Shown: positions 20,601-52,872, counted from the first letter of the stretch. The stretch: DNA of 64,000 nt from an uncultured delta proteobacterium (GCA_963728565.1 CAVSLC010000015.1:1-64000); one strand, 5' to 3'. Notes: generated by a model from the letters alone, not told the origin. Numbers and translations are program-made.

Positions 20601-21345
20601 ATGTAAAGGGGACACGCTACTTCTTATCTACTTCCTCATTTTGCTGAAACCGGGTCGGCCCCATGAACGCATCGTACTCTCAGGTCCAATAGACCTGCAA
20701 TCGACGTCTGCCAGTCTGGTTCTCCAAAAGGTCTTTAACGATTCACTGACTAACGAATTGCAGCCAATTGCCGCGCTGATAGCGGTTCGTCCAAATGCGC
20801 CAGCCGGTCTGTCTCGACTTCGAAAGGACAGGGATCGGCCAGCTCGTTCCGACAGCAACTTGACTTACGGCCGATCATCTATCGACGCTGCCAAGCCTGA
20901 TCTGACTGGATTCTGTAACACGTAGCGCACGACCATTAGCAAATGCTCATCGCGCTGCACTGGAAAACTTTTAAACCGGCCCTGCCAAACATGCCCGCTG
21001 CCGCCGTAATGCTTGTGATAACGCCGTACGTGACTGGTCAAGATCCCTTGCATGAATCGGCTCAGAGACTGGTGATGCGAAGCTCAATCAGAAAGTGAAA
21101 GTGATTCGGAATCAGAGAGAAAGCAAACAACTTAACTGGGTGCCGCGCTTTTGCTAGCGCGAGGATGCAAAGAAAGACTTGGTGATCTTGAGCTTGATGA
21201 AAGATAGTTACGCGACCGTTCCCTCGGTTGATCACATGATAAATATAACCAGCCTGTTGCGCACGCGAGCTTCTTGGCATGGCAGGGCTTTATCATTTAT
21301 GCGAACGTGATCACAAACGATGAAAGTCGCTTGTCCCTTAATCCC
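20601..21345 (-). mobile_element. RAYT family-1 element, near full length (copy B); transposase pseudogene
   Basis: YHVINRGN, LIPNHFHF (HUH), HVWQGRFKS, RYVLQNPVR (catalytic Tyr) and C-terminal ESTMRSWGRP, split over frames. Ends TAAAGGGGACACGCTACTT / AAAGTCGCTTGTCCCTTAA. Confidence 0.88.
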
Positions 21346-21383
21346 GTCAATCTCCCGATCTCCCTCGGCTGTCCTTAGACGCT

Positions 21384-22929: not shown

Positions 22930-23075
22930 GACCGCTCTGGATAGAGTACTCAGGAACAACCCCCCGCGCGTTGCGGCGGTTAAACAGATGCTAGATCGAT
23001 CGGAAAATTTTAATCGTAGGGCGTCGCGCCATTAACGCTTCGCAGGAGCGACGTTGCAGCATAAGACCTGACACC
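22930..23075 (-). pseudogene. 5' stub of a different RAYT, with GACCTGACACC end motif
   Basis: MARRPTIKIFRSI*HLFNRRNARG resembles the MARRPR...YHVxNRGN start; terminal motif at 23065-23075. Confidence 0.5.
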
Positions 23076-23084
23076 AGGTTCTTG

Positions 23085-23225
23085 GGCCGCGCCCGTTCTC
23101 CCGGTTGATCGAATGATAAAACAAAACCTGCCTCTTGCGCGCGCGGGATTCTCGGCATGGCAGGGCTTTATCATATAGGCGAACGGGATCACAACGATGA
23201 AAGTAGCCTGTCCCCTTTAATCCCC
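23085..23225 (-). mobile_element. RAYT family-1 5' end (copy C)
   Basis: Shared block GGCAGGGCTTTATCATATAGGCGAACGGGATCACAACGATGAAAGTAGCCTGTCCCCTTTAATCCCC. Confidence 0.8.
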
Positions 23226-23330
23226 TTCGAAAGTAAATGATCATGGCTCAACGACGCGGTGCCGTTCTCCGGCTCATTCGAAGTTAAACTCATTTTCAGA
23301 ACACGCAGTCGATTAAAGCATCTAGGTACT

Positions 23331-23360
23331 GTGGCTCAACTAGCTAACTCCATACTTGAC
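23331..23360 (+). repeat. 30-bp direct repeat, copy 1 (copy 2 at 27699-27728)
   Basis: GTGGC(T/G)CAACTAGCTAACTCCATACTTGAC, 29/30 identical. Confidence 0.85.
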
Positions 23361-23482
23361 TTAAATGAAAAGCAGATGTTGCGAGCTGCACCTCGCAAAT
23401 TGGGCGGTGACGGTCTCTAATGGACCAACATATTAACAGGCTGACTCTGTGAGGAGTCGCCTAAGCCTAAAGGAGGTGCAGC

Positions 23483-24567
23483 ATGAAAGAGTATATAGGA
23501 GTGGACCTGGGGAAGCACAAGGCCGTGGTGGTAAAGAAAGATCGACAGGGAAAGACAACCAGCAAGGTTACTGTACCTGTGACTCAAGCAGCATTGGAAA
23601 GTTATTTTTCGAAGCAGGACCGTCGAAGCCAGGTGGTGGTGGAGGCCACGGGGAACTGGATGTATCTCTACGAGACCATCGAGCGCTACACACCGGAGGT
23701 CGTCTTGGCACACCCACTTAAGACCCGGGCGATTGCCGAGGCACGGATTAAGACCGACACCATTGATGCGACGACCTTAGCGGAACTGCTACGTCTAGAT
23801 GGCATCCCGAAAGCGTATATACCACCTCGTGAGGTTCGTGACATTCGAGAGTTGTTGCGTTACCGGGCCTCGCTGGTATCGATACGAGTCGGTATCAAGA
23901 ACAAGATTCATGCGGTGCTGACCAAGAACGGCATCGATTGCACGTTCAGTGATATTTTGGGGAAATCCTCCCGGCAGTGGCTGAAGAGTCTAGCCGTGCG
24001 TGCTTGCTATCGGCTAGAGATTGATGGGTATCTACGGATCGCGGAGGCGTTGGCGATTTCGATTGGAGAGATCACAAAAACGATAAAGGCCGAGGTAGCT
24101 GAAAACCCACAGGCTCAACTATTGATGGGTATTCCGGGTATCAGCTACTACTCGGCTCTGTTAATCCTCAGTGAGATTGGTGAGGTAGACCGTTTTCCCA
24201 ATGCCAAGCGATTGTGTTCGTATGCCGGCTTGGTTCCCAGTATCTATAGCTCGGGAAGCAAGAGCTACAGCGGATCACCAAACAGGGTTCACGGTGGCTG
24301 CGATGGATTTTGGTAGAGATCAGCATCCATGCCGCCAACGGGGATTCGAACTTTCAGAAAGTGTACCGCAGAGTGAGTCGACGACGCGGTCCTAGCACGG
24401 CGAGAGTGGCGGTAGCGCGAAAGATCCTCACTGTCATTTACGCCATGCTAAAGCGAAGTGAGTCGTTTAACCGTCACAGACCTCGGCAACGACTTATGGC
24501 TGTACCTGGGCGAAAAAAAGTGACCGACGTCTCTGGTCATCCTCCTGGGGTCATGGTCCCGGCCTAA
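23483..24567 (+). pseudogene. IS110 transposase/recombinase with one frameshift near 24272
   Basis: GVDLG, VVEATG, KTDTID (DEDD), IPGI, YAGLVP..SSG; continues ITKQGSRWLRWILVE...VAVARK in another frame. Confidence 0.88.
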
Positions 24568-24773
24568 ACCGGAGATCCGAAGATTTGATTAGGAGACCAG
24601 AGTCGAATTCAATAATGTGCCGAAGAGCACGGATGAGTGACTGACCGATTGGTCGACCGAGACCGAACAGAACTCTGGTCGCAAACAACGGCAGTGTGGG
24701 TGATTAGACTAACCCCACGCCTCCCGTGAAGAGGTGCATCTAAACGAGACCTTGACAAGTTTCTTTTCATGAG
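24528..24773 (+). ncRNA. Candidate bridge/seek RNA of IS110 #1
   Basis: Stem CTCTGGTC...GACCAGAG encloses GGGGTCA (24547-24553), the exact reverse complement of the right flank TGACCCC. Confidence 0.5.
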
Positions 24774-24994
24774 TGACCCCTTGATCCACCTCTCAGTTTT
24801 GTACAGACGCACAGCCACCAACAGGCAGTTCGTGGTGCCCTTTTCACTGTTGACCTGCGCATCGTTGATCGGGTAATACGATTTCGGGACTACGTCCTTT
24901 ACGAGTGGCTGCGAGCCTGGTCCCACGTAACAACGTGTACACAGTTTTCAAAGCCCGGCTCTGACCGAGAAAGCTTTAGGGTAAGGGAGACAAG

Positions 24995-25960
24995 GTGAAA
25001 GCATTCATCAGCATATTGATCCCAACTCAAGGTCGAATCGATCAACTGAGGCGGCTGTTGCGTAGCTTGTCGCGGCTGGACGGTCGAGAAAATGTTGAAC
25101 ACGAAATCATCGTCTGCAACAACGCGCCGGACGATGTGAAAGCCCGCTCCGTAGAAGGTATCGTCAAGTATTACGTTGCAAAAGAGCCGAAACGATGGCA
25201 CCTGGCGCGAGAACCCTTGCCTGGTAAAAGCCGCGCCTTAAATAAGATTATTCCGCTTTCAAGAGGGCAGATCCTGGGATTCTTAGACGATGACGTGGAG
25301 GTAAATTCCTCATGGCTGCAAGCTACTTGCAATTTCTTTTCTCATCATTCCTTTGACGTAATGCAAGGATCTATTCTCGTACCGCCGGAGATGGCTGGTG
25401 ATGAAAAGTTTCTTAAGCTGCTGAATCGTTATCGAACGATCTGTTACTACCAGAAGCCTGGATTGGAAGTCAGGGAGATCCGCACTCTCAATGCAGCCAA
25501 TATCGCGTTCAGACGCGAACTTCTTGAGAAGACAGATCTTTTCGACGAGCGCATCGGTCCAGGTCAGTCGGGAACCTCAATGGATGTGGAGTTTGGCGAA
25601 AGAGTCCTGAGGAACGGAGGACGGATTGGCTACGATCCCAGTTCTATTGTATACCACGAGGTCGACTGGAATCGCCTCACTGAGGATTATTTTCGTTTGC
25701 GTCATGAGAGGCAAGGAAGAAGCCGCCTCCTTTATAAATCCAGTTCACTACCAACTATTATGGGAGATTTGATCCGGGCTACGTGCGGTCTGGGTCTCTA
25801 TTCGCTATTGAACGACGAACGTAAAAAGTATCGCGCCAAAGGCCGGTATTTTCATTATCGGGCCATGCTTGGCGAGAAAATTCGCCGCTCAGCTTGGCGC
25901 ATGCGGCAGGTGCAGGGCGAACTATCACGTGAGCCAAGTGGCCGGCCGCCGTCGCTGTGA
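24995..25960 (+). CDS. Glycosyltransferase family 2
   Basis: ISILIPT, GKSRALN, FLDDD, FDERIG, DVEFG. Confidence 0.9.
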   Translation: MKAFISILIPTQGRIDQLRRLLRSLSRLDGRENVEHEIIVCNNAPDDVKARSVEGIVKYYVAKEPKRWHLAREPLPGKSRALNKIIPLSRGQILGFLDDDVEVNSSWLQATCNFFSHHSFDVMQGSILVPPEMAGDEKFLKLLNRYRTICYYQKPGLEVREIRTLNAANIAFRRELLEKTDLFDERIGPGQSGTSMDVEFGERVLRNGGRIGYDPSSIVYHEVDWNRLTEDYFRLRHERQGRSRLLYKSSSLPTIMGDLIRATCGLGLYSLLNDERKKYRAKGRYFHYRAMLGEKIRRSAWRMRQVQGELSREPSGRPPSL

Positions 25961-26026
25961 TTGTCGACTGCGAATTGTTTGTATCGGTCACTGTCGGACT
26001 CAATCACTGCCGAGGTTAGTTTTCGT

Positions 26027-27136
26027 ATGAGATCGCCTTCATCACGTTATTCGAATCGCGAGAGCCGGTTTCGCGTGATGTACATAGTTAAAAATTATCC
26101 ACAGATGTCCGAGACTTATATCAAAACCGAGATCGAAGCCGTTGCTGAGCGCTGCGACGTTAGCGTCTTAGCAACAAGAAAAGCTAACTTGCCGGCAAAA
26201 GAGCATATGCCATTCAAGTTGGTTGAGGATACTTCAGCAATTGGTGAAGCCATAGAGGCGTTCCAGCCGGATGTTCTTCACAGTCACTGGTTAAATTCGG
26301 TGAAGATACTCGGCAAATTCGCGCGAAAGCTGAATATTCCGTTCACAGTGAGGGCGCATTCTTTCGACTCGATTTGGCAGGAGAATAAGACGGCCTTTGA
26401 CTTTCTGCCCTTTGTTCGTTCGTTCCGTCTACCATCTCGAATCCGCCGGGCCGTATCCCTTATCAACGACGACCTCTGTCTTGGTATTCTCGCGTTTCCC
26501 TTCGCCCGTGCCCGCTTGGAGAGGGCGGGCATTCGCGGTGACAAGATCGTTGATTGCTATCCGGTGGTGAATTACCGTCGGTTTCATGACGAATCGCCAA
26601 ACGGCGAAGCCATCATGAACGTTGGCGCGGCTATTCGGAAAAAAAAGATGGAGGACTTCATTGAGCTAAGCACCCTGGCTCCCAAGTTACAGTTCAATCT
26701 CTACGCTTTAGGATATAATGTGGAGCAGTTGCGGCAACTCAGCATCGACAAAGCAAGCCCAGTCAATTTTATTTCACCCATCGAATTGGAGGATATGCCT
26801 GCCGAGTATAAGAAACACCGCTGGTTGGTTTATACAGCCGCAAAAGACGGAAGAGTCGGCTGGCCCATGTCTGTCGCAGAAGCTCAGGCGGCCGGGGTCG
26901 GTGTCTGCATGGCAAATATCCGGCCGGATTTGCGTGAGTATGTGGGTCCGGCCGGCTTTTTGTACGATTCACTCAGTCAAGTGCTGGAGATCATCTCCAA
27001 ACCGTTTCCGGCGGAATTGCGAGAGATGGGCTTTGAGCACGCAAAGAAATCCGACATTTTTTCGCACCGCGCCTCGCTGTTCAAGCTTTGGCAAAAGGCG
27101 AACTCAGCTCACTCAGTTCAAGGTTCCCTATCATAG
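26027..27136 (+). CDS. Glycosyltransferase, GT-B/GT4-like
   Basis: YPQMSETYI, PDVLHSHW, KKKMED, GWPMSVAEAQAAG. Confidence 0.8.
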   Translation: MRSPSSRYSNRESRFRVMYIVKNYPQMSETYIKTEIEAVAERCDVSVLATRKANLPAKEHMPFKLVEDTSAIGEAIEAFQPDVLHSHWLNSVKILGKFARKLNIPFTVRAHSFDSIWQENKTAFDFLPFVRSFRLPSRIRRAVSLINDDLCLGILAFPFARARLERAGIRGDKIVDCYPVVNYRRFHDESPNGEAIMNVGAAIRKKKMEDFIELSTLAPKLQFNLYALGYNVEQLRQLSIDKASPVNFISPIELEDMPAEYKKHRWLVYTAAKDGRVGWPMSVAEAQAAGVGVCMANIRPDLREYVGPAGFLYDSLSQVLEIISKPFPAELREMGFEHAKKSDIFSHRASLFKLWQKANSAHSVQGSLS

Positions 27137-27163
27137 CCGAGCATTCTCGGTCATCACACGCCT

Positions 27164-27731
27164 GGGTCAGGCATGAGTTATTGACTTGTTGAGCCAACGC
27201 TGCAACTCCGATTCTGATCGCTTGTCCCGTTTCTCCACATACGCCGCGTGCAGCCGGCTAATCATCGATGCGTCGCGATGGAGGTGTTCTGCCGAACTCT
27301 CCATTTGATCCCGCATCACTCCCGCGCCGCATAGACCAACAACGATCGCGGCTCTGCCCAGCTTCGCTTGCGTTCCGTGCGCAGCAGTCGCCCTGCTTCA
27401 ATGCTATACAGCGACGCCACCCGCTCCACCAAGCGGGTAAATTTAACCTTAACCTTTGCCGGCTCCGTTTCCTTTGTCTTCTTCTCAACTTCGTTGACAA
27501 ACCGCTCGTCGCCTAAAAATCGTTGCTCTACCGTCTGATAGAGACGATCCAGGTGCCCCTGACCCAGTCCCTCTTTGATAAAACCATGATACCCTCTTCG
27601 GGCAACGCTCGGATTGGACCCGAACTGCTTCAGCACGGAGCTGCTCTGAATCGTGACCGGAGTGTGTTCTCCGGCATAGGCCCGATGGCTGCTCCAGCGT
27701 GGCGCAACTAGCTAACTCCATACTTGACCCC
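27164..27731 (-). mobile_element. RAYT family-3 element (C-terminal DnaA-C-like HTH), internally deleted, imperfect ~26-bp TIRs
   Basis: WSSHRAY, ARRGYHGFIKEG, FLGDERFV, RSLLVYAARE. Ends GGGTCAGGCATGAGTTATTGACTTG / CAACTAGCTAACTCCATACTTGACCCC. Confidence 0.7.
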
Positions 27732-27951
27732 TTAACCCCCTCCGCCGTGGAAAAGCAGCCGCCTGTTTCGTAGCCGTCGAACCGCGGAAACAACTTGAGC
27801 GGCATTGATTCAGAGAGCTAGAGAGGCTAAATCTTTGGTTAGCATAATCAGTTCTCCTACAGAATGCTGTGCCCAGATAGGCGACTAAGCGTCAACCAAG
27901 ACTAATTTCTATTTGCTATCAGCGATTTCATAGACAGAAAGAAGAAGCAAA

Positions 27952-28209
27952 ATGGATTTCGAAAAAGCAAAGCTGAATCCCGCAGCCGTTTTTAAGAGCC
28001 CTCAAGAAGTGGTTTCAAGTCAAGAATTGTCGCGCCAGCAAAAAATTGAAATCCTTCAGCGATGGGAACAGGACGCGACGTTGATGGAAGTCGCGGAGGA
28101 AGAAGGCATGCCCGGCCCGCAACCCAAACTGCTACAGCCGATCCGCGACGCTCTGCACGCCCTCGATTATTGGCCGGATACTGAGAACTCGGGCCCCAGC
28201 AAAGTCTGA
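27952..28209 (+). CDS. Small conserved hypothetical protein
   Basis: PAAVFKSPQEVV...LSRQQKIEILQRWEQD...AEEEGM is a recurring small-protein pattern. Confidence 0.7.
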   Translation: MDFEKAKLNPAAVFKSPQEVVSSQELSRQQKIEILQRWEQDATLMEVAEEEGMPGPQPKLLQPIRDALHALDYWPDTENSGPSKV

Positions 28210-28330
28210 GAAGCGGACCGCAAGAAAGTCGCGATGCGCAAAGCAACTCCGTTCAACCTGACCCCTCAATGCCTTATCCAGGCTCGTCCGTTAAGTCGAG
28301 GTTAGGCCAACTCCGCAGGTTTACCTCCGC

Positions 28331-28359
28331 TTGACACAGTGCCCCGCCGTGCTTACCTT
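28331..28359 (+). promoter_or_regulatory. Sigma-70-like promoter for hsp20
   Basis: TTGACA-N17-TACCTT upstream of AAGGAG RBS. Confidence 0.45.
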
Positions 28360-28400
28360 CTCATCAGCTTAAAGAAAAGGTTTAAAAAGGAGCGCTAATT

Positions 28401-28847
28401 ATGGAACTAGTAAGATGGGAACAGGTTGAAGGTGTAAACAGAATTCAGTCCCGGATCAACGAGCTATTCGAAGACGCGTTGGGTCGTACACGGGCGCAAC
28501 AGAGTGCTGCTGCTGGAGTTTGGTATCCTCCCGTGGACATTCTTGAAAGTAAGGATTCGTATCTCATTCGCGCCGAGCTGCCCGGGATGAGAAACGAGGA
28601 TCTCAAAACGGAAGTAAACGAGGGCATATTGACACTCAGTGGCGAGAGAAGGCTTGAAGAGCCGGCCAGTGGGGTCGAGTACCACCGGGTCGAGCGGGTT
28701 ACAGGTAAATTTTCTCGATCCTTCCACGTGCCGCAAACCGTGAACCCCGATGGCATCAAAGCGACCTATAGGGATGGCATACTTGAAGTACAAGTTCCCA
28801 AAGCCGATGAGGCCAAGCCGAGACAAATCGCTATAAGCTTGAATTGA
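28401..28847 (+). CDS. Hsp20/alpha-crystallin small heat-shock protein
   Basis: PPVDI, AELPG, LTLSGER, GKFSRSF, ATYRDGIL. Confidence 0.95.
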   Translation: MELVRWEQVEGVNRIQSRINELFEDALGRTRAQQSAAAGVWYPPVDILESKDSYLIRAELPGMRNEDLKTEVNEGILTLSGERRLEEPASGVEYHRVERVTGKFSRSFHVPQTVNPDGIKATYRDGILEVQVPKADEAKPRQIAISLN

Positions 28848-28875
28848 TTCATCGCAGAACCGTCAAACAGATACT

Positions 28876-28909
28876 CAGGGGGGAAAGCCAAGCGCTTCCT
28901 CCCTGTTTT
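28876..28909 (+). terminator. Intrinsic terminator after hsp20
   Basis: CAGGGGGGAAAG...CTTCCTCCCTG followed by TTTT. Confidence 0.5.
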
Positions 28910-28949
28910 CTGGTAACCCCGCCAAAAAGCACTTAGCTTAGTATCGAAC

Positions 28950-29044
28950 ACGTAATGCTCGCTCTTATGAAACACCGCGGCACGACCGTTGCCGCGGTTT
29001 ATTATGGCGCAGAGCAGTTTGTCGACCACGCGTATTCCCTGCAT
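28950..29044 (-). pseudogene. Diverged RAYT 5' stub (copy D)
   Basis: IINRGNGRAAVFHKSEHY. Confidence 0.55.
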
Positions 29045-29420
29045 AAGCGGCTTCTAACATAGCCGGCGAGTTCGTCGCGATATTTGATTCTCATCCTCAA
29101 TCAATCTCCGATCTGAGTTTGAGCGCGCCGGCATGGGGAATCTTCGCGGTCGACGGTGCTATGCCTTAGCCATTTCAACAGCTTTGTCCCAAGGAATCGT
29201 GTTTTCTGGCCTTAGCGCATCATTTGACCGGCAAATTCGCTGTCCTAAAAGTTTCTGAAATTAGCGCCGCTATGCAACCGATAGCACTGGATCAATAACT
29301 TTCTCTGCTTCGACTCGCCGGTAACCAAGTCCTGATACCATCATGAACGAGTTTGGAGCTATTGTCCCGATCACAAGAATTGGACAAGATAAGGAAGCCC
29401 CCGAAAAGGAGGATCCTGCG

Positions 29421-29702
29421 ATGCACTTGTTCCTGATCGTCGCATTAGGGTTAGCGATTCTAACGGTCATCTTTGCACTGCAGAATCCTATTCCCGTTGG
29501 TGTGACTTTTTTTATTTGGAAATTTGAAGGCTCGTTGGCTCTAGTGCTGATATTAACATTTGCCCTGGGAGTTTTAGTGACTTTGTTGATATCGATCCCC
29601 GCTATAGTAAAAAGAAGATCGTCGACTTCACGTCAGACGAAGAAAATAGAGGAGCTGGAGACTCGATCCCGCGAAAGGACCCCACCGCCCCCGTCACTAT
29701 GA
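29421..29702 (+). CDS. LapA (DUF1049) family membrane protein
   Basis: IFALQN..V.V.FF.W....SLALV; AGGAGG RBS. Confidence 0.85.
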   Translation: MHLFLIVALGLAILTVIFALQNPIPVGVTFFIWKFEGSLALVLILTFALGVLVTLLISIPAIVKRRSSTSRQTKKIEELETRSRERTPPPPSL

Positions 29703-29724
29703 CAGTTACGCTGCGGCAATAATA

Positions 29725-29958
29725 CATCAGAGAGAAAGCAAACATCTTAACTGGGTACCGCGCTTTGCTAGCGCACGGATGGAAAGAAAGGCTTGGTAAT
29801 CTTGAGCTTCAAAAGGTCGTTCTGCGACCGTTCCTCGGTTGATCACATGATAAACAAAACCAGCCTGTTGCGCATGCGGGATTCTCGGCAGGGCAGGGCT
29901 TTATCAAATAGACGCACGTGATCACAAACGAGAAAAGTAGCCTGTCCCCTTTAATCCC
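29725..29958 (-). mobile_element. RAYT family-1 5' end (copy E)
   Basis: Same block as A/B/C, ending AAAGTAGCCTGTCCCCTTTAATCCC. Confidence 0.82.
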
Positions 29959-30028
29959 GGTGGAAGTGATGGAGCCGGACGCGCGGCTTTGTTTTCCTTT
30001 GGACGGGCCATCGTTCATCTTAACGGGC

Positions 30029-31039
30029 TTATTCCCGTTTCTCCCACCGTGCGATCAAGCCCAGCAAATCGCAGACGCGATTGGAGTATCCCCATTCATT
30101 GTCGTACCAACTGAGACACTTTAGATATCTACCGCCCGTAACGCTGGTAAATGCCGGGTCGAAAATAGAGGAGTGCGAATTCCCTATGACGTCGGATGAT
30201 ACGACGGGTGTTTCCATGAGTTGCAAAATGCCTTTCATCCGTTTCGAGTCCGCCGCGGATTTTATCGCGCCATGAACGTCCTCGGCACTAATACGTTTCT
30301 GGAGCTCGACGAACAAGTCGACCACGGAGCCATCGGGTACCGGTACCCGCGCGGCGATTCCGTCCAGCCGTCCTTTCAATTCAGGCAAGACCTCGCCCAC
30401 CGCCTTGGCCGCTCCGGTGGATGTCGGTATGATATTTTCCGCCGCGGCGCGGCTCCGCCGCCAATCCGAGTGCGGCACGTCGGCGAGGCGCTGATCGTTG
30501 GTGTAGGCGTGCACGGTATTGATGATTCCTTCCACGATACCGAAAGAATCGTGGAGCACCTTGGCCAGCGGCGCAAGACAATTCGTGGTGCAGCTCGCGT
30601 TAGAAATCATCCTGTGCTCGGGCTTGAGCCCGTCATCGTTGACGCCGATTACGACGGTATAATCGATCTCATCCTTCGCCGGAACGGTCAGCACCACTCG
30701 CTTGGCTCCCGCATCCAGATGCTTGGCAAGTTGTTCCCTGCTAGTGAATATTCCCGTCGATTCGATGACGACATCGATGTCGATCTCGCGCCAGGGCAGT
30801 TTGAGCGGGTCCTTTTCACGAAGCATGCGCGTCCGACCGTGCGATGTCACCAGTTCATTGCCTTCGAGTCGCAGGGCGCCCTCAAAACGACCCATTACGG
30901 TGTCATAGTTGAGCAAGTATCGCAGCGCGTCATGGTCGAAGAGGTCATTGATCGCAACCAGTTCGGCGTCCGCCCGCTTATCGAGAATGCGGAACACAGA
31001 ACGGCCGATTCGACCGAATCCATTAATGGCAACTCTCAT
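30029..31039 (-). CDS. gap: Type I glyceraldehyde-3-phosphate dehydrogenase
   Basis: NGFGRIGR, ASCTTNCL, TVHAYT, PTSTGAAKA, RVPV, WYDNEWGYS. Confidence 0.95.
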   Translation of the reverse strand: MRVAINGFGRIGRSVFRILDKRADAELVAINDLFDHDALRYLLNYDTVMGRFEGALRLEGNELVTSHGRTRMLREKDPLKLPWREIDIDVVIESTGIFTSREQLAKHLDAGAKRVVLTVPAKDEIDYTVVIGVNDDGLKPEHRMISNASCTTNCLAPLAKVLHDSFGIVEGIINTVHAYTNDQRLADVPHSDWRRSRAAAENIIPTSTGAAKAVGEVLPELKGRLDGIAARVPVPDGSVVDLFVELQKRISAEDVHGAIKSAADSKRMKGILQLMETPVVSSDVIGNSHSSIFDPAFTSVTGGRYLKCLSWYDNEWGYSNRVCDLLGLIARWEKRE

Positions 31040-32055
31040 CGCCCACCTCCGATCGTATCGAGGGTGCTGTAGTGCCGGACCACTTCGAGCACGCGGCACG
31101 CATGCCCCAGGCTCTCATACCAGGCCAGCACTTTGATTATTCTTTTTCCTGCTTTAATGGTGGCGAGCGAATCGAAGAGCAAGGATTGCCGGCAACCGAT
31201 GACATCCGAAGAAACAATCGGATCATCGGTCACGCCGATCAACGTCGGATGATCGGCAGCGGCGGCGCGCATAGCTCCGCTCACTTGCTCGGCCGTGACG
31301 GTGCCAGCCTGCATGACGCAGTTAACATCGAGCAATGATCCGCGTTGGACCGGCACGTTAAGGGCGTAACCGCTCAACTTTCCCTCAAACTTGGGCAGAA
31401 CAAGCTCCACCCATCGCGCGGACTCATTGTTGTTGGGGATGATATTCTCCGCCGCGGACCGGCTGCGCCGGAAATCTTTGTGTGCATAATTCTGCAGCGA
31501 CTGATCGCTACTATAGGCGTGGACCGTCGTCATCGATGCGCAGTCGACTCCTAAGGCCTGATCCAGAGATTGCAATAAAAGCGCAAATGCATTGGTGGTC
31601 GCGGAACCGGCCGAAATCATTTTGTCCGCGGCGGCGGCGCTCCCTTCATTGATTCCCGGTACTACGATACGGTCGATTGATTCCGCCGGCAGCGACGCCA
31701 GAATGACCCGCGGGGCACCGGCGCGCAGATGGGCCTCCATGTCCCGACGACTCTTATATCTGCCTGTGGCATCGACGACGCAGTGGACATCCAGAACATC
31801 CCATGGAACCTCCTCCGGCCGGACAAGCTGGAGCATTCTTGTGCGGAACTTCTCGTTGATCAGGTAATTGTCCTGGAGCTCGCAGGGCGCCTCGTCCACG
31901 CCGTCGCTATTGAGCAGATACTGAATGATTTCAGGTTTGCCGATATCGGCCACCGCGACGATTTCGATATCATCTATTTCCCGCGCAAGGTGATACAGAT
32001 GCCGCCCAATTTGGCCCAATCCCATAATGCCGATTCGGATTTTACCATTACGCAT
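31036..32055 (-). CDS. GAPDH-like protein lacking the catalytic cysteine
   Basis: GLGQIGR, full-length fold, but AGSATTNAF replaces ASCTTNCL and WYES replaces WYDNE; ATGA overlap with gap. Confidence 0.88.
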   Translation of the reverse strand: MRNGKIRIGIMGLGQIGRHLYHLAREIDDIEIVAVADIGKPEIIQYLLNSDGVDEAPCELQDNYLINEKFRTRMLQLVRPEEVPWDVLDVHCVVDATGRYKSRRDMEAHLRAGAPRVILASLPAESIDRIVVPGINEGSAAAADKMISAGSATTNAFALLLQSLDQALGVDCASMTTVHAYSSDQSLQNYAHKDFRRSRSAAENIIPNNNESARWVELVLPKFEGKLSGYALNVPVQRGSLLDVNCVMQAGTVTAEQVSGAMRAAAADHPTLIGVTDDPIVSSDVIGCRQSLLFDSLATIKAGKRIIKVLAWYESLGHACRVLEVVRHYSTLDTIGGGR

Positions 32056-32174
32056 TTGGCCGCCTCCGTTTCCGCAAAATTAAGCGCTCGAAGTTGGCGT
32101 TATCCATAGCCGAGAACTCTAACAACCGATCAACCAAAAGAAAATGCTTTTCTGAGGAAATCGTCAAACTGGAG

Positions 32175-32494
32175 GTGTAAAGGGGAGAGGCTACTTTTTA
32201 TCTACTTCCTCATTTCGCTGAGACTGGTGATGCGAAGCTTCAATCAGAAAGTGCAAGTGATTCGGCATCAGAGCGAAAGCAAACATCTTAACTGGGTGCC
32301 GCGCTTTGCTAGCGCGAGGATGGAAAGAAAGACTTGGTAATCTTGAGCTTTATCAGAGATAGTTGCACGACCGTTACCTCGATTGATCACATGATAAATG
32401 AAACCAGCCTGTTGCGCACGTCGGCATGGCAGGGCTTTCATACAGGCGAACGTGATCACAGACGATGAAAGTAGCCTATCCCCTTTAATCCCCC
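32175..32494 (-). mobile_element. RAYT family-1 element, internally deleted (copy F), with both TIRs
   Basis: TAAAGGGGAGAGGCTACTTT ... AAAGTAGCCTATCCCCTTTA; YHVINRGNGRATI. Confidence 0.85.
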
Positions 32495-32495
32495 C

Positions 32496-32715
32496 GATTT
32501 GAACATGGTTCGCGCCCGAGTGGTTACGCATCCCTGTGATTGGACACACAGCGGCGCATCGCGAAGTCATTGAAAGTGGCGGTACATATGAGCTCCGGGA
32601 GCAGACTCAAAGTTATGGGTCCAATTTCGGCGGTTAAATGAGGTGCTAAGCTTGGATATACTAGCTTCTGGAACGAAGATTTAAACCTAGTGCAACTTAG
32701 GCTTGGTCCGACCCC
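32496..32715 (+). mobile_element. RAYT family-2 3' remnant ending GGTCCGACCCC
   Basis: Deleted copy of 34870-35395 (shared GAAGTCATTGAAAGTGGCGGTACATATGAGCTCCGGGAGCAGACT). Confidence 0.75.
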
Positions 32716-32834
32716 GGACTTCTAGTTTCACCCGGTAGGGTCGCAGGCTACTGCAGTAGAGCCGGCGGAGTATATGGGCGCGGCAAAATCCTTTTGAGCT
32801 GCCAAGAGCCCCGTACGGCAAACTTCAGGGTGAA

Positions 32835-34304
32835 TTACCGTATGAACCCTAACAGTCTCCAATAAGGAACACTGACGCCTAACGCTAAAAAGTTCGCAGC
32901 GCATCGTACCACCATGAGTTTCCGAGCTTGCGCATGTGAAAACGCATTGCCGTCTGTACTGTAAAAGGCGATTTGATAAGCATCGTTCTGAGATAGAAGA
33001 AACCAGCTCTCATTTGCCATAAGGATGGTGATTAGAAGAATTCCGGGATGCACCCCCAGCTCCTGCCCCCAAGAACTTAGCCCGAGAGTGGATAAGAGAA
33101 TAACGGTTGGTGTTTTACCGAGAAAGAAACGAATGAAGTACACGGCTACTGAAACAACCGTCAGAAAAGCCAAAGGACCCAACGCCACATAAGAAAAGTA
33201 TGGACCGATAGATGCCATGAGCCACTGATCGATTTTTAGATGACGCATGATGCCGTCGAAACTCGAAATCACACCTAAGAAAAAGAGGAAACCCCAATCT
33301 ATTCTGGCTTTGAAATCGTCTTTTTCGAGTACTCTGGTTAGAAGGAAAACTGAGAGCGCGCCCAACGCAACCCATGTCTCGCTCAATCCATGCATTGGCT
33401 TTGATAACCACCCGACAAGCGCGAACATCAGTATTCCGAGACTAAGCCGTTCATTACGGGTTAATGATTTCGGCCTATCGAGAGGATGATCTGGTTGTTT
33501 CACTTGGCTAGACCGTGAAATGACTTCGGTCGGGAACAGGTAGTGTACTCCGAGGAGTAGGCATCCCAGTGTAACGACTCCCGCCGGAAGCGCGGCCACA
33601 GCCCAAGTCGTCCAGCCAAAATCCAATTTGGCTGCTTGCGGAAGTAAGTTCCATCCGATCAAGCAGGAGGTCGCTCCTGTAAGGAACATAAATGCACATT
33701 GGGTAAAACCGACATACGCTGAGAGGCCTATTCCCGCCGAGCCGTTCGAGCGCCTTTCAAATCCCATTGTTTCCGAGATCGTTCTACTGAGAGGTGCTGC
33801 TATCGCCATACGAGCCTTACTCGTTGGCATCACCGGGGTAACTATGAGACCAGATATGGTGAGTAACCAGGTGTACATCCGGTAATTAGGCGAGATCCGG
33901 CGCAGAGTTTCTAAAGCTATACTATGAAACAGCCCAGATTTGTTGACGGCAACAGCGATCCCAAGAACTGCAACAACAAAGCACCATGACGTCTTGGAGA
34001 ACCCGGCCAGCGCTACTTCTGAGGGCACGGCATCCGAAACTACCCAAAAAAGCAACATCAATATGCCGACAAGATACTCGTCGTATACGTTGAACATGAG
34101 AAGCAGCGTTCCGGCGGTAAGACTACCGAGAAAATAGAGTCCGCTCGCATCCAGGAGGGCGGGGGTCGGAAGCTGCATGACTAGCCAACCCATCGTCAAA
34201 GCGATCATCAGGCCAATAAGTTTTCCATCAAATATCTGCGCCGCGTTCCGTGCTGACCACAACGAGTCCGTTATCGGCTGGAGAGTCTGGCTGCGATTCA
34301 TCAA
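32835..34304 (-). CDS. SLC13/DASS family anion:sodium symporter
   Basis: Multiple TM segments; ALAGFS, MPTSKAR, MFLTG, IDWGFL, SVPYWRLLG. Confidence 0.85.
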   Translation of the reverse strand: MMNRSQTLQPITDSLWSARNAAQIFDGKLIGLMIALTMGWLVMQLPTPALLDASGLYFLGSLTAGTLLLMFNVYDEYLVGILMLLFWVVSDAVPSEVALAGFSKTSWCFVVAVLGIAVAVNKSGLFHSIALETLRRISPNYRMYTWLLTISGLIVTPVMPTSKARMAIAAPLSRTISETMGFERRSNGSAGIGLSAYVGFTQCAFMFLTGATSCLIGWNLLPQAAKLDFGWTTWAVAALPAGVVTLGCLLLGVHYLFPTEVISRSSQVKQPDHPLDRPKSLTRNERLSLGILMFALVGWLSKPMHGLSETWVALGALSVFLLTRVLEKDDFKARIDWGFLFFLGVISSFDGIMRHLKIDQWLMASIGPYFSYVALGPLAFLTVVSVAVYFIRFFLGKTPTVILLSTLGLSSWGQELGVHPGILLITILMANESWFLLSQNDAYQIAFYSTDGNAFSHAQARKLMVVRCAANFLALGVSVPYWRLLGFIR

Positions 34305-34865
34305 CGAACCACGTCAAATGCTAGGCCGCACTGCGAAGGTGTTTCTTCGGCATTTGACAACTGTTCAAAGAGAATTTTAGTCATCGCTTCAATAACAATT
34401 TGTCCGCCCATTATATCTTTCCGGCTTTCTAAGCTTGAGTAGCCATTCATGTTAACATCTCTTCAGTGACAAAACCCTTTCCTTCACAACGAGCTACGTC
34501 TTCCGGTTCCCCCGGATGACACCCGCGCTACGTAGAAACGTTCTCCTATAGCTGCATCTTGTTTCGGATCAGGCGGGAACTGCCAACCAAAACAGATAAG
34601 GCAAAGCCGATGCCGTTTACTGATCGGAGTTTTAACCGTTTGTCGGTAAACCGTGGCACTGCTGGGGTGACGATAAATGCCAAAAGTGACTGTCGCTGCA
34701 CAAAAGCGTCGTCTGATTTTCTACTCGGCACGTTGGGAAGCTGAGAAACCGCACTGACTCAAGAGTAACATCGATGGAGGGAGGTGGGCCGGTTAGCGCT
34801 TATGGCGGATATTTCCAACATAAATACCAAACTGCATCAACCCAGCAATCCTGAGATGTTTCGTC

Positions 34866-35385
34866 ACGGCGCATTTTGGAGACCGCTATCATGCCACGGC
34901 CATCGAGATTAACGAGCAACTTCAACATTGTCTCGTTTACATCGATTTGAATATAGTTCGCGCCGGAGTCGTTACGCATCCCTGTAATTGGACACACGCG
35001 GGTTATCGAGAGATGCAGAAACCCCCCGAAGCGCTACGGGATTATCGATCTACCGGAGTTAAGTTCGCTATGTGGATTCGGCGACGTTGCAACATTTCAG
35101 CAAGCACATCGTCGGTGGGTAGATGATTCACTCGCGCGCGAGGCGATGGCAAGAGAAGGTGCGTGGTCAGAAGCGATTGCGGTCGGCAATTTGAATTTTG
35201 TTGATAAGGTGCAGAACGAACTCGGATACAAAGCGGCACACCGCGAAGTCATTGAAAGTGGCGGTACATATGAGCTCCGGGAGCAGACTGAAAGTTATGG
35301 GTCCAATTTTAGCGGTCAAAATGAGGTGCTAAGCTCGGAGAACACTAGATTTTGGAACGAAAGTTCCGAAGTTACTGCAACTTAG
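34866..35385 (+). pseudogene. RAYT family-2 transposase, 5'-truncated and frameshifted
   Basis: GAFW-DRYHATAIE, CLVYIDLNIVRAGVVTHP, WSEAIAVG. Confidence 0.75.
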
Positions 35386-35473
35386 CTTGGTCCGATAATC
35401 ATCTAGCAGGCTCCTTCGATAGGCCGTAACGTGCGGGGACATCAACCCACACCCGCTCAAAGGAGGAAGCGAG

Positions 35474-36490
35474 ATGAAATTGTACGGAGCTATTGATTTG
35501 CATTCCAACAACAACGTGACGGTGGTGATCAACGAGCAAGATCAAGTGTTGTATCAGAAGCGCTTGCCCAACGATCTTTCGTTGATCGCGCAGCAACTCT
35601 CGAGCTATCGCAGATCGCTACAGGGAATCGTGGTGGAGTCTACCTATAACTGGTACTGGCTGGTCGATGGACTGATGGAGAAGGGCCATCAAGTTCATCT
35701 GGCCAACACCGCGGCGATCCAGCAATACAATGGGCTGAAGTACACCGATGACCACAGCGACGCGCGGTGGCTGGCCCATCTGCTGCGGCTAGGGGTCTTA
35801 CCCGAGGGCTACATTTATCCCAAGGAAGAGCGAGCGGTGCGTGATTTGTTGCGCAAGCGCGGCCAGCTCGTGCATCAGAGGACGGCTAATCTTCTCAGTA
35901 TCCAGAGTCTAATCAGCCGGACCACGGGAAACTCGATCGGCACCCAGTACATCAAAGCGCTCAATATCGAACATCTGGATGGAGTCTTACCTAACCCGGA
36001 TCACATCCTTGCACTCAAAGCCAATCTGGCAGTCATGAAAAGCGCTGATGCCCAGATCGAGATCTTGGAAAAAGCCGTCCAGGACCGAGTCAAGCTACGA
36101 CCTCAGTTCGGATTTCTAAAGACGGTACCCGGAATCGGGCCGATCCTGGCGCTGACGATCATGCTCGAGACCGGAGAGATCGAGAGATTTGCCTGTGTCG
36201 GCAATTACGCTTCGTACTGTCGCTGTGTGGGGAGCCAGAAGATCAGCAACGGCAAACGTAAAGGAATCGGCAATACCAAAAACGGCAACAAGTATTTGGC
36301 CTGGGCGTTTGTAGAGGCTGCCAATTTTGCGATCCGGTTTAATTCGAAGATCAAAGGCTTCTATCAGAAAAAGAAATCTAAGAGCAATGGGATTGTGGCA
36401 ATCAAAGCGGTGGCCCACAAGCTCTGCCGGGCTTGCTACTACATTATCAAAGATCAGGTGGCTTTTGATCTCACCAAAGCGTTTGCTTAG
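35474..36490 (+). CDS. IS110 transposase/recombinase (intact)
   Basis: AIDLH, VVEST, YTDDHSD (DEDD), VPGIG, catalytic-Ser region ISNGK, AVAHKL; AGGAGG RBS. Confidence 0.93.
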   Translation: MKLYGAIDLHSNNNVTVVINEQDQVLYQKRLPNDLSLIAQQLSSYRRSLQGIVVESTYNWYWLVDGLMEKGHQVHLANTAAIQQYNGLKYTDDHSDARWLAHLLRLGVLPEGYIYPKEERAVRDLLRKRGQLVHQRTANLLSIQSLISRTTGNSIGTQYIKALNIEHLDGVLPNPDHILALKANLAVMKSADAQIEILEKAVQDRVKLRPQFGFLKTVPGIGPILALTIMLETGEIERFACVGNYASYCRCVGSQKISNGKRKGIGNTKNGNKYLAWAFVEAANFAIRFNSKIKGFYQKKKSKSNGIVAIKAVAHKLCRACYYIIKDQVAFDLTKAFA

Positions 36491-36499
36491 CAGATCGAT

Positions 36500-36942
36500 T
36501 TAACGGTTGGGATGGGATAGTGAGCCTTGGCTGGGGTTGGCTTAGAACCACATGGTCCGATTTGGCGGCTCTCCCGTCCCTGATCATATGGACAACTCGG
36601 CGGTGCTGTGATTCGATGGACGCCCACGCCGTGAGCCACAATAGGGTTGGCCCCCAACAGGGAGAGCCACAGGATCTGTGATCCTATAACCTTGGACGCG
36701 GCGTGGTACCGATAGTTTTCTGGGGCAATTAAGATTGCCAGGGGCGCGAGATCGCTGCCCGAGAGGACAGCTCTCAAAGCCTTGAACCTGATGGGTGACT
36801 GGTGCGTACCTACGGTCCGACACCAACTGATTGAAAACAGGGGCGCGTCAATCAGGGATCACATAGTCGGCGAGGGTTCAAAAAGGGAATAAGAAAAATT
36901 CTCACAGGAACGTCTGTGCCTCTTGACCTGCCTGCTAATGGG
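36500..36942 (+). ncRNA. Candidate bridge/seek RNA of IS110 #2
   Basis: GAGCC...GGCTC stem enclosing GGGGTTGG (36533-36540) and TGGTCCGA (36553-36560), matching opposite strands of the target; a second GTGAGCC..GGGTTGG module at ~36631. Confidence 0.55.
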
Positions 36943-37127
36943 CGACCCAACGCTTTGTACGCAAAACTGACTTTCACCATGGGCTGCTAAACGTGGAGAG
37001 CCTCGAACAAACGCTTGGGGGAGACTCAGAGAGAAGCCGCCCATTGAAAAGTAGGCCGTTTGGCTTTCCCCATCAGAGTGGCGTGGGATCTGATGGGGAA
37101 AGCCGCGACCAGAACACTCGACAATCG

Positions 37128-38459
37128 CTAAAACCGAGCATTGGCCCAGTTGGCGACATAGTTCCACGTATTGAGCAGCACGTTAACATAAGGGCCCGTA
37201 CCGTGGTAAGCAGCGCATTCATTGCAGTTCCCGCCGCCGTGGGTCGCCCCCTCCACGACGATAAACTCCTTATTGATGGCGGCCGCATTCTCGAAGATCT
37301 CCTCGCCATCACGAATGAAATAGTGGCCTTGGTGCGCCAAAACCAGGGTGGGCACCGAGATCACCCGAACCGCGCAGACCGTAGAGTTATTGGTCGAGCA
37401 CCAATCCAGGTCATCAAGCGCATGGTGAGAGCGGATTGCATTGGCACTTAAGAATGATGTGATTGTGAATTCCTCGGGGCTGTTTTCATCGTCGTCCTTG
37501 ATATCTGGAGTAGGAACTCTGACGGTACGAATGATCTGCGGGGCCGAGAGCTCCCCGGTCGCGTCCTGTAGAAGTTTCGTTGGATTCAGCGTGCAGCAGT
37601 GAACCTGGGTGGTAAGTTGCACCAAACGCGCGTTGACGCGGTTAAGAACAAATGCGTCATCAGCCGGGTCATGCAACCCAAGCTCCATTTTGCGCCTGAT
37701 TGTTAGAGCATCCCTAATCAGATTGTTCATACGTCTTGACTGCGCAAGAGAGTATTTGTCGACAAAATGATCCGAGTAGGTTGAATCGCCATCCGGTTCG
37801 TGGTCTGGCGGGAGGCCGTTGTAGCCGTTTGCCGGGTCGAAAGGGTCGAGCGTTTTATTGATCGCAGGACCGAATGGTTGGTTTTCATTGACGACAGATG
37901 CGTTAACCGAACGCAGCCCATTGACCCCGACTCCCGGATGCGCGTCAGTAAAAACGATTCCGTTAGCTCTATCCGCAGCGTTGAAATCTGTGTCTGTAAA
38001 AGGGCACTCAGTAATTTTCTTAGGCCCCTGGCAGTAAGATGGGCCATTTTCCGCTAACGCCTGGTAGTAGGACGTGCTCGGACCACCCCCACTGCGCCCA
38101 ACTAGAATGACGCTTGTGTGTCCTTTGCTTCTTAGGAATCGCACTCCATTCCGTATATCGAGAGCGATTAGCTCGAAGTTGACGGCGGCTTCGCTATTGC
38201 CGAACCTAGTTCTGATACCAAGAGTGCCAAAGCCTCGATTTGCCAACTCCACAGATGACTGATGGTTTCGATAGTCATTGGTGCGATGGATAGAAAGGAA
38301 CGCGATGCGAGGCACTGGCCCCACCGCTGGAACCCGATAACGGCCAAGCGCGCCGTCACCCAAATTAACTTCTTCGATAGTTACCTGGGCAGAAGCGTTG
38401 GTCATTCCGAGAACTATGCCCAAACCAACGATGAATGACAAAATCTTTAATCTTACCAT
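37128..38459 (-). CDS. Exported alpha/beta hydrolase
   Basis: Signal peptide, GRSGG nucleophile elbow, VPTLV, EGATHG; GGGAGG RBS. Confidence 0.8.
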   Translation of the reverse strand: MVRLKILSFIVGLGIVLGMTNASAQVTIEEVNLGDGALGRYRVPAVGPVPRIAFLSIHRTNDYRNHQSSVELANRGFGTLGIRTRFGNSEAAVNFELIALDIRNGVRFLRSKGHTSVILVGRSGGGPSTSYYQALAENGPSYCQGPKKITECPFTDTDFNAADRANGIVFTDAHPGVGVNGLRSVNASVVNENQPFGPAINKTLDPFDPANGYNGLPPDHEPDGDSTYSDHFVDKYSLAQSRRMNNLIRDALTIRRKMELGLHDPADDAFVLNRVNARLVQLTTQVHCCTLNPTKLLQDATGELSAPQIIRTVRVPTPDIKDDDENSPEEFTITSFLSANAIRSHHALDDLDWCSTNNSTVCAVRVISVPTLVLAHQGHYFIRDGEEIFENAAAINKEFIVVEGATHGGGNCNECAAYHGTGPYVNVLLNTWNYVANWANARF

Positions 38460-38724
38460 AGAAACCTCCCTTGACTCTGTATGCCACTCTTAATACGCCA
38501 CCACCGTTACCGTCAAATTCTTTTTATGAAAGCAGCCATTTGATTTTTTAATGCCTGCACGGGGGAATCAAAAGCCTGAGATTTCCGCAAATCGAACCAA
38601 CATCAATGGCGAGGAAAAGCACTCTTAAGCCGCAGTTTGTTCAACACCAAACCATTACGCTAGAGATTTCAACATGAACTTTTCGCAACCTTAAAACTGG
38701 TCGCCGACACTTACACGGCTCAAG

Positions 38725-39002
38725 AGCCATTGCATGAATCGGCTCAGAGACTGGTGATGCGAAGCTTCAATTACAAAGTGAAAGTGATTCGGCATCAGAG
38801 CGAAGCAAACCTTAACTGGGTGCCGCGCTTTGCTAGCGCGAGGATGGAAAGAAAGGCTTGGTAATCTTGAGCTTTATGAAAGATAGTTGCGCCGACCGAC
38901 CGTGATTGATCACATGATAAACAAAACCAGCCTGTTGCGCGCGCGGATTCTCGGCATGACAGGGGCTTTATCATATAGGCGAACGGGATCACAAACGATG
39001 AA
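38725..39002 (-). mobile_element. RAYT family-1 5' segment (copy G), TIR lost
   Basis: Same block as A/B/F, truncated at GATGAA. Confidence 0.8.
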
Positions 39003-52692: not shown

Positions 52693-52742
52693 CTTTCATT
52701 CTCTCCGTTTGAGCAAGTTGATTGTAACTAGTAAAGTCCCTG

Positions 52743-52865: not shown

Positions 52866-52872
52866 TAGCCTG

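Follow-up and report, generated by a model that had tools for sequence, protein, structure and literature searches.

A window of 64,000 nucleotides (nt) from an uncultured delta proteobacterium (GCA_963728565.1 CAVSLC010000015.1:1-64000), the window being the whole stretch of DNA analysed, carries two insertion sequences (IS) designated here IS#1 and IS#2. Both belong to the IS110 family and are of the IS1111 type, and we consider it probable that both are RNA-guided and have entered sites of the form YGA-CCC(C) in the flanks of genes for REP-associated tyrosine transposases (RAYTs; REP, repetitive extragenic palindrome). This reading is founded on the element ends, empty target sites, target logos, co-variation between internal guide-like segments and the flanking DNA, a co-varying stem and the bracketing of RAYT genes by copies of the target, all of which were observed directly. 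A preliminary description of this DNA had proposed a layered system in which RAYT ends provide landing pads for several such elements, and its claims are taken up below beside the results that bear on them.

The window is part of the reference genome (G000), an assembly of 28 contigs that is 80.6% complete, and G005 is a genome from the same genus. A scan of 185,579 species genomes for relatives of IS#2 yielded 80 extra loci with 48-93% protein identity, from many phyla as judged by record titles, and further copies of IS#2 occur in related genomes. Fifty-four elements of this family retain both ends, and they represent 53 unique sites. A metagenome scan for IS#1 gave 20 loci, and 24 family sequences were inspected in all; the counts of guide-like segments given below refer to 23 listed sequences of the family. 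Among the public sequencing runs, the highest share of sampled words in any run was 0.43. Individual loci bear L numbers.

Elements, ends and recombinases

The two elements, their genes and their occupied and empty sites are located as follows.

23360-24773, plus strand: IS#1, IS1111 type, 1414 bp, with ends set by three close copies, one diverged miniature, metagenomic relatives and an empty site
23331-23359, plus strand: left half of the IS#1 target (…CAACTAGCTAACTCCATACT) and the left TGA core (23357-23359)
24774-24780, plus strand: right TGA core copy and CCCC right half-site of IS#1
27699-27735, plus strand: empty paralogue of the IS#1 target (CAACTAGCTAACTCCATACTTGACCCCTT…), in which CAACTAGCTAACTCCATACT-TGA-CCCCTT equals both flanks of the element at 23360-24773
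23483-24567, plus strand: IS#1 recombinase gene, split by a 4-bp deletion between 24271 and 24272 into open reading frames (ORFs) 23483-24316 and 24310-24567
35396-36942, plus strand: IS#2, IS1111 type, 1547 bp, with ends set by relatives
35389-35395, plus strand: GGTC and left CGA core copy (35393-95) of the IS#2 target
36943-36949, plus strand: right CGA core copy (36943-45) and CCCA right half-site of IS#2
35474-36490, plus strand: IS#2 recombinase gene, intact, 338 aa, with Pfam and NCBIfam matches and end-to-end matches in many relatives
34860-35385, plus strand: RAYT2, frameshifted C-terminal remnant of a RAYT-like Y1 transposase gene, seen in three-frame translation, TAG stop at 35383-35385
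32701-32715, plus strand: empty paralogue of the IS#2 target, GCTTGGTCCGACCCC

The ends of IS#2 given in the preliminary description, 35396 and 36942, are exact: the 54 relatives retaining both ends start with TAATCATCTAG and finish with CTAATGGG. TGA forms the left core at 49 of the 53 unique sites and CGA at the other four, and the right junction reads YGA followed by CCC at 30 of them. The junctions in the window are GGTC-CGA/TAATC… on the left and …AATGGG/CGA-CCCA on the right, and removal of the element rebuilds GGTCCGACCCA, as had been claimed, only when one of the two CGA copies is removed with it. The earlier placement of IS#2 at the 3' end of a RAYT also stands, the GGTC-CGA-CCC site lying 7 nt beyond the stop codon of the decayed RAYT2 gene. 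This remnant shows 82% DNA identity to G000:C10:204747-204863, a place scoring 28.5 bits on Pfam Y1_Tnp, and at the protein level it matches the L062 RAYT with 58% identity across 53 aa. The uninterrupted site reported at 32701-32715 is present as well, at the end of a 173-bp stretch that is paralogous to the left flank of IS#2 and 86% identical to it, and this site matches the guide-like segments of IS#2 at least as well as the occupied site does.

One full IS#2 and one 200-bp right-end fragment, in contig C10, were found in G000, and in contigs from four public runs IS#2 has several distinct right flanks that diverge at 36947-36950. The lone right-end fragment of an IS#2 relative at G000:C10:204396-204611 (84% identical) adjoins a RAYT fragment. 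About 1.8 kb away, at approximately 206250-206700, a RAYT2-like 3' end finishes in GTGGTCCGACCGACCC, which differs from the IS#2 site in having the 4 nt CGAC duplicated and contains no element; the GGTCCGACCGACCC at this 3' end may be an excision footprint or a mere variant. In L033 the right end (approximately 2966-2976) reads CTAATGGG-TGC-TAATAGG-TGA-CCC, resembling a 10-nt partial duplication of the terminus.

The left end of IS#1 had been placed at 23417, which is wrong by 57 nt. Homology between copies continues leftwards to 23360 and gives way to unrelated sequence beyond the TGA; thus the copies at G000:C28:59682-60284 and in G005:C13 match IS#1 to about 23356-23360 and diverge only farther left. 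Within the family the left end TTAAATGAAAAGC is present in 19 of the 24 sequences, immediately preceded by TGA in 18 of them, and the right end CTTTTCATGAG in 15 of 24, followed by TGACCC in 14. The window copy shows one extra C, its first base, directly after the left TGA when compared with relatives, and its left flank is 97% identical over 30 bp to the empty paralogue at 27699-27728. Taken together, the shared 57-nt stretch, the TGA preceding the ends and the empty site at 27699-27735 identify the target of IS#1 as CATACT-TGA-CCCC. The comparison of flanks across homologous copies, which had been recommended as a check, therefore upheld the proposed ends of IS#2 and moved the left end of IS#1 to 23360.

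Two shortened forms of IS#1 were observed. The copy at G000:C28:59682-60284 (L002/L003) is a 603-bp internal-deletion derivative, a non-autonomous miniature located in CAAGACT-TGA-CCCC, in which positions 1-196 are joined to 1016-1358 (numbered from 23417) and both ends and the guide region are retained. The second, at G005:C5:18626-18954 (L030), is a miniature relative of about 330 bp, approximately 70-79% identical, with the same end motifs and flanks TGA…TGA-CAC. Both lineages meet on one 7.4-kb metagenome contig (L129), where the right end of an IS#1-family element (2779) and that of an IS#2-family-like one (4009) are separated by about 1.2 kb, with TGA-CCC(C) following in both cases.

The frameshifted IS#1 gene and the IS#2 ORF both encode matches to Pfam DEDD_Tnp_IS110 (PF01548) and Transposase_20 (PF02371) above the cut-offs. 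On the NCBIfam model NF033542, 'IS110 family RNA-guided transposase' (cut-off 140), IS#2 scores 184 bits and an intact G005 copy of IS#1 227.8 bits. The frameshift in IS#1 was placed by alignment to this intact 362-aa copy; no intact IS#1 recombinase was found in G000, which is an incomplete genome. The two recombinases had been described as unrelated members of IS110; their membership is borne out by Pfam, and since they are 28% identical over 261 residues (E 2e-25) they are distant relatives of one another. Both show distant, weak similarity to the solved transposases of IS621 and ISCro4, and the IS#1 family carries GLVPSIYSSG aligned with GLtPrryeSG of IS621, including the conserved serine of the G--P----SG motif.

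As to the insertion sites, a short core (YGA) is present at both junctions, and there are two empty paralogous sites. The layout is that of the IS1111 group (PMC11187229, PMC11208160), with 123 nt upstream and 206 nt downstream of the gene in IS#1 and 78 nt and 452 nt, respectively, in IS#2. Subterminal inverted repeats of 8 bp, within the 7-17 bp range for IS1111, occur in IS#1 (ATGAAAAG / CTTTTCAT) and in IS#2 (TAGCAGGC / GCCTGCTA), and a 6-mer test for such repeats was positive at 47 of the 53 unique IS#2-family sites.

Target sites and RAYT genes

The target logos show that the commonest target in both lineages is …AAGAYY-TGA-CCCC, and ATACT-TGA-CCCC is also used. The motif GGTCYGACCC, to which both insertions had been assigned, provides the context for IS#2 and four close relatives only; IS#1 lies in CATACT-TGA-CCCC and the part common to the two sites is YGA-CCC(C).

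The connection to RAYTs is most evident at G000:C7:33841-34797, where an intact Y1-transposase gene (49.9 bits on Pfam Y1_Tnp, PF01797, cut-off 23) has TGTCAACAAAAGATTTGACCCC on both sides, in inverted orientation, with the TGA of the 3' copy constituting the RAYT stop codon. Inverted copies of AAGAYYTGACCC bracket the intact RAYT genes at G000:C7, G005:C20 (L138) and G005:C2 (L139), and the G005:C13 copy of IS#1 is inserted in 25 nt that match the G000:C7 RAYT repeat exactly. On the NCBIfam model REP_Tyr_transpos (NF047646, cut-off 80) L112 scores 92.3 bits, L139 70.9 bits and L138 66.2 bits. RAYTs with inverted repeats abutting the stop codon, some of the repeats not being genome-wide, have been described earlier (PMC2817692).

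In seven of 91 IS#2-family and four of 22 IS#1-family sequences, a RAYT gene on the opposite strand begins no more than about 50 nt from the left end, and Pfam Y1_Tnp was confirmed in three of the 45 IS#2-family loci for which flanking ORFs were scanned (L066, L072 and L112). In the window itself the RAYT fragments score 22 and 20.7 bits on Y1_Tnp, below the cut-off, in addition to the RAYT2 C-terminal remnant.

Neither GGTCYGACCC (13 copies in G000, about 17 expected) nor AYTTGACCCC (10 copies, about 18 expected) is over-represented, and both were rejected as a high-copy REP of G000 with counts below expectation. High-copy REPs of RAYTs usually exceed 100 copies per genome; the motif numbers 10 in G000 and 2-17 in five other genomes. 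Relative to a reversed-pattern control, AAGAYYTGACCC is enriched in G005 (17 vs 2), G123 (8 vs 0) and G124 (7 vs 0), while G125 (2 vs 2) shows no excess and G126 (11 vs 6) a weak one.

It has to be considered whether the elements simply target a generic short intergenic motif, the adjacency to RAYTs being incidental. No recognisable RAYT adjoins 84 of 91 IS#2-family and 18 of 22 IS#1-family sequences, many flanks being short, and the neighbours of the insertions are mostly ordinary transport or metabolic genes or other transposases. We nevertheless regard this explanation as improbable, since three intact RAYT genes have the motif inverted on both sides, with the TGA of the 3' copy as the stop codon, and since an adjacent RAYT start, seen in 11 loci, invariably lies on the opposite strand and no more than about 50 nt from the left end. 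Moreover, left flanks from unrelated records and different phyla are alike (…ATTGCAAGACC-TGA…) beyond the reach of the guide-like segments described below, as expected for copies of one repeat family, and the excess over the reversed control in three genomes, if not in G125 and only weakly in G126, points the same way. As most insertions adjoin genes other than RAYTs, solo copies of the repeat are evidently used as well.

Guide-like segments and a putative RNA

Both elements carry, downstream of or overlapping the end of the recombinase gene, short segments that resemble their target flanks and their own ends.

36507-36580, plus strand: IS#2 target-binding-loop-like module, with a co-varying outer stem around two guide-like segments
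36531-36539, plus strand: IS#2 right-guide-like segment CTGGGGTTG, complement of YGACCCC including G-U wobbles, on the 5' side of the loop
36554-36560, plus strand: IS#2 left-guide-like segment GGTCCGA, equal to left flank plus core, on the 3' side of the loop
36791-36798, plus strand: IS#2 donor-guide-like segment ATGGGTGA, matching the right end (AATGGG) plus core
24547-24553, plus strand: IS#1 right-target-guide-like segment GGGGTCA, exact complement of TGACCCC
24580-24588, plus strand: IS#1 left-target-guide-like segment AAGATTTGA, equal to left flank plus core of the G005:C13 copy
24633-24640, plus strand: IS#1 donor-guide-like segment ATGAGTGA, equal to its own right end (CATGAG) plus TGA
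24752-24757, plus strand: TTGACA, -35-like hexamer, ending 16 nt before the right end of IS#1
36923-36928, plus strand: TTGACC, -35-like hexamer, ending 14 nt before the right end of IS#2

The IS#2 module begins directly 3' of the stop codon and its stem is formed by the arms GGGATGGGATAGTGAGCC and GGCGGCTCTCCCGTCCC. RNAalifold predicted 20 pairs from 34 IS#2 relatives, and 14 of these show compensatory changes, which fall almost entirely in the outer stem. The program also paired the two guide-like segments with each other (columns 58-61 with 80-84); these pairs were discarded as probably reflecting the near-palindromic target rather than structure. The IS#1 family shows a consistent fold, with compensatory changes at four of 35 pairs among 13 sequences. 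A scan of 23000-37500 against Rfam, with E values up to 1, detected no bridge-RNA family, the sole match being a sub-threshold STAXI.

Within the IS#2 family the left-guide-like segment tracks the left flank: AAGATG in L104, AGGGC in L102, AGGTT in L081 and L082, ATACT in L100 and GGAG in L106, while the pair of segment and flank reads GGTC plus CGA in the window, L007, L021 and L038. Odd right flanks are likewise accompanied by altered right-guide-like segments, with CACAGG occurring together with CCCTGTGT (L086, L089) and 10-nt matches in L098 and L117. Over 43 unique sites, exact runs between the segment and the left flank sum to 134 against a permuted mean of 36, and best matches to the right flank sum to 221 against 176, neither total being reached in any of 2000 permutations.

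The donor-like segment of this family lies about 145-185 nt from the right end and repeats the right end and core. It tracks the variant right ends ATGAGTGG, ATGTGTGG, ATGGGTGT, ATGGGTGG and ATGGGTGC, and it varies together with the right end and the next 3 nt in L097, L098, L075, L094, L111 and L116. In these same six loci the 3 nt past the right end are TGG, TGT or TGC instead of TGA. As the third base varies in six right junctions, the core common to all may amount to no more than the dinucleotide YG, and the third core base may belong to the flank or to the left end.

In the IS#1 family GGGGTCA is found at the same position in 16 of 23 sequences, all 16 of which have a left-guide candidate, and 17 of 23 have the donor-like segment in the equivalent place, 62-141 nt from the right end. 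The relative L118 carries AATACT-TGA at the left-guide position and has inserted at CTATACT-TGA. In both families GGGGTYR lies 5' of NNNNN-YGA, such that the match to the top strand precedes that to the bottom strand and the two overlap at the core; the same order has been reported for the IS1111 seekRNA (PMC11187229). For a right-donor guide, complementary to the left end, only a TGATTA beside the left guide recurs, altered in the window's clade, and we make no claim for it.

These results strongly suggest RNA guidance of both elements. In each, the gene for a DEDD recombinase precedes an extended non-coding region on its 3' side, which would specify a bridge RNA- or seekRNA-like molecule. 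A stem would close an internal loop in this RNA. The 5' side of the loop complements the top strand of YGA-CCCC, the right half-site, whereas the 3' side has the sequence of the left flank and core and would accordingly pair with the bottom strand. The element's own right end and core recur in a second module. Such a layout implies insertion by site-specific recombination at the 3-nt YGA core, which is then present on both sides. On this view IS#1, the recombinase of which is now frameshifted, landed in CATACT-TGA-CCCC and the intact IS#2 in GGTC-CGA-CCC, just beyond the stop codon of a decayed RAYT gene. The commonest target is the outward-facing inverted repeat around a clade of RAYT (Y1/HUH) genes, which also exists as solo copies, and the IS#2 clade of this genus has, on the same view, retuned its left guide and core, from TGA to CGA, to a second type of RAYT.

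A circular intermediate is also envisaged, at the junction of which the right-end -35-like hexamer would be joined to TGA-TAATCA or GATAAT in IS#2 and to TGA-TTAAAT in IS#1. In 52 of 54 IS#2-family members a TTGAC occurs within the last 34 nt, at a distance of 14-17 nt from the right end, and a sigma-70 promoter across the junction of right and left ends is a published family trait (IS621, PMC11208160). Of the TTGAC and TAAT motifs earlier noted at the right and left ends of both elements, both TTGAC motifs and the TAAT of IS#2 are placed as described; the TAAT of IS#1 (23418) proves to be internal.

Several observations, in addition to the low copy number of the target motif and the scarcity of adjoining RAYTs, weigh against the reading as a whole. 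RNA production, circle formation and transposition are deduced from sequence, and contigs of four public runs contain neither a joint across IS#2 nor a junction of its right and left ends, these contigs being uninformative on circles and excision. The window copy of IS#1 is defective through its frameshift. The IS#2 recombinase has SN (kiSN) in place of the catalytic SG of IS621 and ISCro4 (yeSG), with the serine itself kept. The AAGATT segment of the window IS#1 fits its site CATACT only at positions -1 to -3 (with one wobble) and -5, and this site fits the AATACT variant of L118 better. In the IS#2 family, anchoring of the left guide by regular expression succeeded for 17 of 54 elements with a first scaffold and for 39 and then 45 with looser versions, some anchors being wrong; nine elements thus have no anchor and at least L075 and L100 are mis-anchored. 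Exact runs are short in L009, L012, L036, L040 and others. Finally, relatives share guides by descent and the permutation counts consequently overstate independence.

Recognition by the protein alone, with the matching non-coding segments being coincidental or target remnants carried along, could accommodate the near invariance of the right half-site and of the element ends, which a protein might read, and it gains from the fact that the RNA is a deduction from DNA. However, among similar recombinases the internal segments vary in step with the variable left flanks and the rare variant right flanks, the internal loop holding these segments is closed by a stem with compensatory changes, and RNA guidance has been demonstrated experimentally for other IS1111 and IS110 elements (PMC11187229, PMC11208160); we consider this explanation very unlikely. 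Scarcely credible is the arrangement of the preliminary description, with IS#1 at 23417-24773 and both elements in one RAYT end motif GGTCYGACCC: GGTCT at 23412-16 and GACCCC at 24775-80 do frame such an element, and IS#2 with its four close relatives does occupy GGTC-CGA-CCC, but GGTCT is internal and conserved even in diverged relatives, the 57 nt to the left of 23417 are common to all copies and relatives, the empty site at 27699-27735 fits an end at 23360, and literal deletion of 23417-24773 yields GGTCTTGACCCC, with one T more than the sequence that it was said to rebuild.

Surroundings, related systems and significance

Apart from the two elements, the window contains six direct copies of a RAYT-fragment repeat, 80-91% identical and 140-317 bp long, each comprising an N-terminal RAYT-like part on the minus strand and its 5' flank.

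15777-16084: RAYT-fragment copy
21038-21354: RAYT-fragment copy
23088-23228: RAYT-fragment copy
29725-29961: RAYT-fragment copy
32220-32493: RAYT-fragment copy
38720-39002: RAYT-fragment copy

The copies have a common end, …CCTGTCCCCTTTAATCCCC, are truncated differently on the opposite side and, within G000, are confined to this contig. Ordinary transport and metabolic genes lie between them, including two overlapping GAPDH-family ORFs on the minus strand (30029-31099 and 31036-32055) between two of the repeats. Two families of high-copy repeats unrelated to the IS targets are also present (43241-43487 and 52741-52866, also 60398-60549), one of about 245 bp with at least 15 copies and the other of about 125 bp and represented on many contigs by more than 50 copies. 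An ORF at 41016-41546 on the minus strand carries a Pfam Zeta_toxin / AAA_33 kinase-like domain (E 1e-13) and is possibly part of a toxin-antitoxin system.

Insertion of one mobile element into the end of another is reportedly the habit of IS4321 and IS5075, IS1111-family elements said by Partridge and Hall (2003) to target the terminal inverted repeat of Tn21-family DDE transposons; the logic would be the same as here, the hosts there not being RAYT units. REP-targeting IS110-family elements are said to have been described by Tobes and Pareja (2006). Among the named relatives found, the closest to the IS#2 recombinase is a plasmid-borne one annotated by NCBI as 'ISGsu4 family', with only 53% identity.

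The closest parallels are the IS1111 seekRNA elements ISEc11, ISPa11, ISKpn4, ISPst6 and ISPa25 (Siddiquee et al. 2024, PMC11187229), which share with IS#1 and IS#2 a DEDD recombinase of about 340 aa, a long non-coding region downstream and subterminal inverted repeats. Among them ISKpn4 and ISPa25, with 46%-identical transposases, have one common target (PMC11187229). The present elements differ in their RAYT-flank target and YGA core, in that the lineages sharing a target are far more distant (28%), and in being known from sequence alone. IS621 (Durrant et al. 2024, PMC11208160; structures 8WT6 and others) is of the same family, enters REP sequences and has a two-loop bridge RNA with target and donor guides around a short core. 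Unlike both elements, it belongs to the IS110 group, with a left-end RNA, a CT dinucleotide core and very short inverted repeats, and its resemblance to the proteins described here is distant (E 6e-6 and 4e-15). ISPpu9 and ISPpu10 (PMC12288879; preprint 10.64898/2026.03.19.712850) are IS110-family elements that insert site-specifically into the RAYT-associated kind of repeats; their REPs are high-copy, whereas no genome here contains more than 17 copies of the motif.

In the titles and opening parts of abstracts of 12 of 16 papers on RAYTs together with IS110, neither of the IS families nor the motif is described, which is weak evidence that the case is unpublished, and close relatives might already figure among the target logos and structures in the supplements of PMC11187229 and PMC11208160. 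Judged against published descriptions, both elements are new examples of the established targeting of REPs and transposon ends by IS1111 elements. The layered system of RAYT-end landing pads envisaged at the outset is sound with regard to site-specific IS110 elements, the shared YGA-CCC(C) and sites in RAYT flanks, and it restates known behaviour. The landing pads themselves need qualification, as the motif is low-copy, occurs also in solo form and, in most relatives, is occupied without a neighbouring RAYT gene.

RAYT-flanking repeats join the mobile-element ends known to serve as IS1111 landing sites, and no new kind of system is involved. Of modest interest are the use by 28%-identical lineages of the same 13-nt RAYT-flank site, conserved across phyla, and the movement of left guide and core to a second RAYT type in the window's IS#2 clade. 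There are practical consequences in that donor design, circle PCR and flank logos for IS#1 would fail with the 23417 end and require the corrected ends and core. The natural guide/target pairs in the two families number several dozen. They belong to IS1111-type recombinases with a YGA core of 3 nt, include variants of left guide, right guide, donor guide and core, and would be useful for establishing programming rules in this less studied branch.

More tentatively, the clade of RAYTs may carry a site of about 13 nt (AAGAYY-TGA-CCCC) that has been kept, or converged on, by at least two IS1111 lineages across phyla. Host, RAYT unit and RNA-guided IS would then form an arrangement of three tiers and of great age, in which the RAYT flank acts as a conserved safe harbour; we hold this to be rather unlikely. 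If it were true, the IS might ride along whenever the RAYT unit or its repeats are mobilised, and the IS#2 clade of this genus would represent natural retargeting in progress, the change of core from TGA to CGA included.

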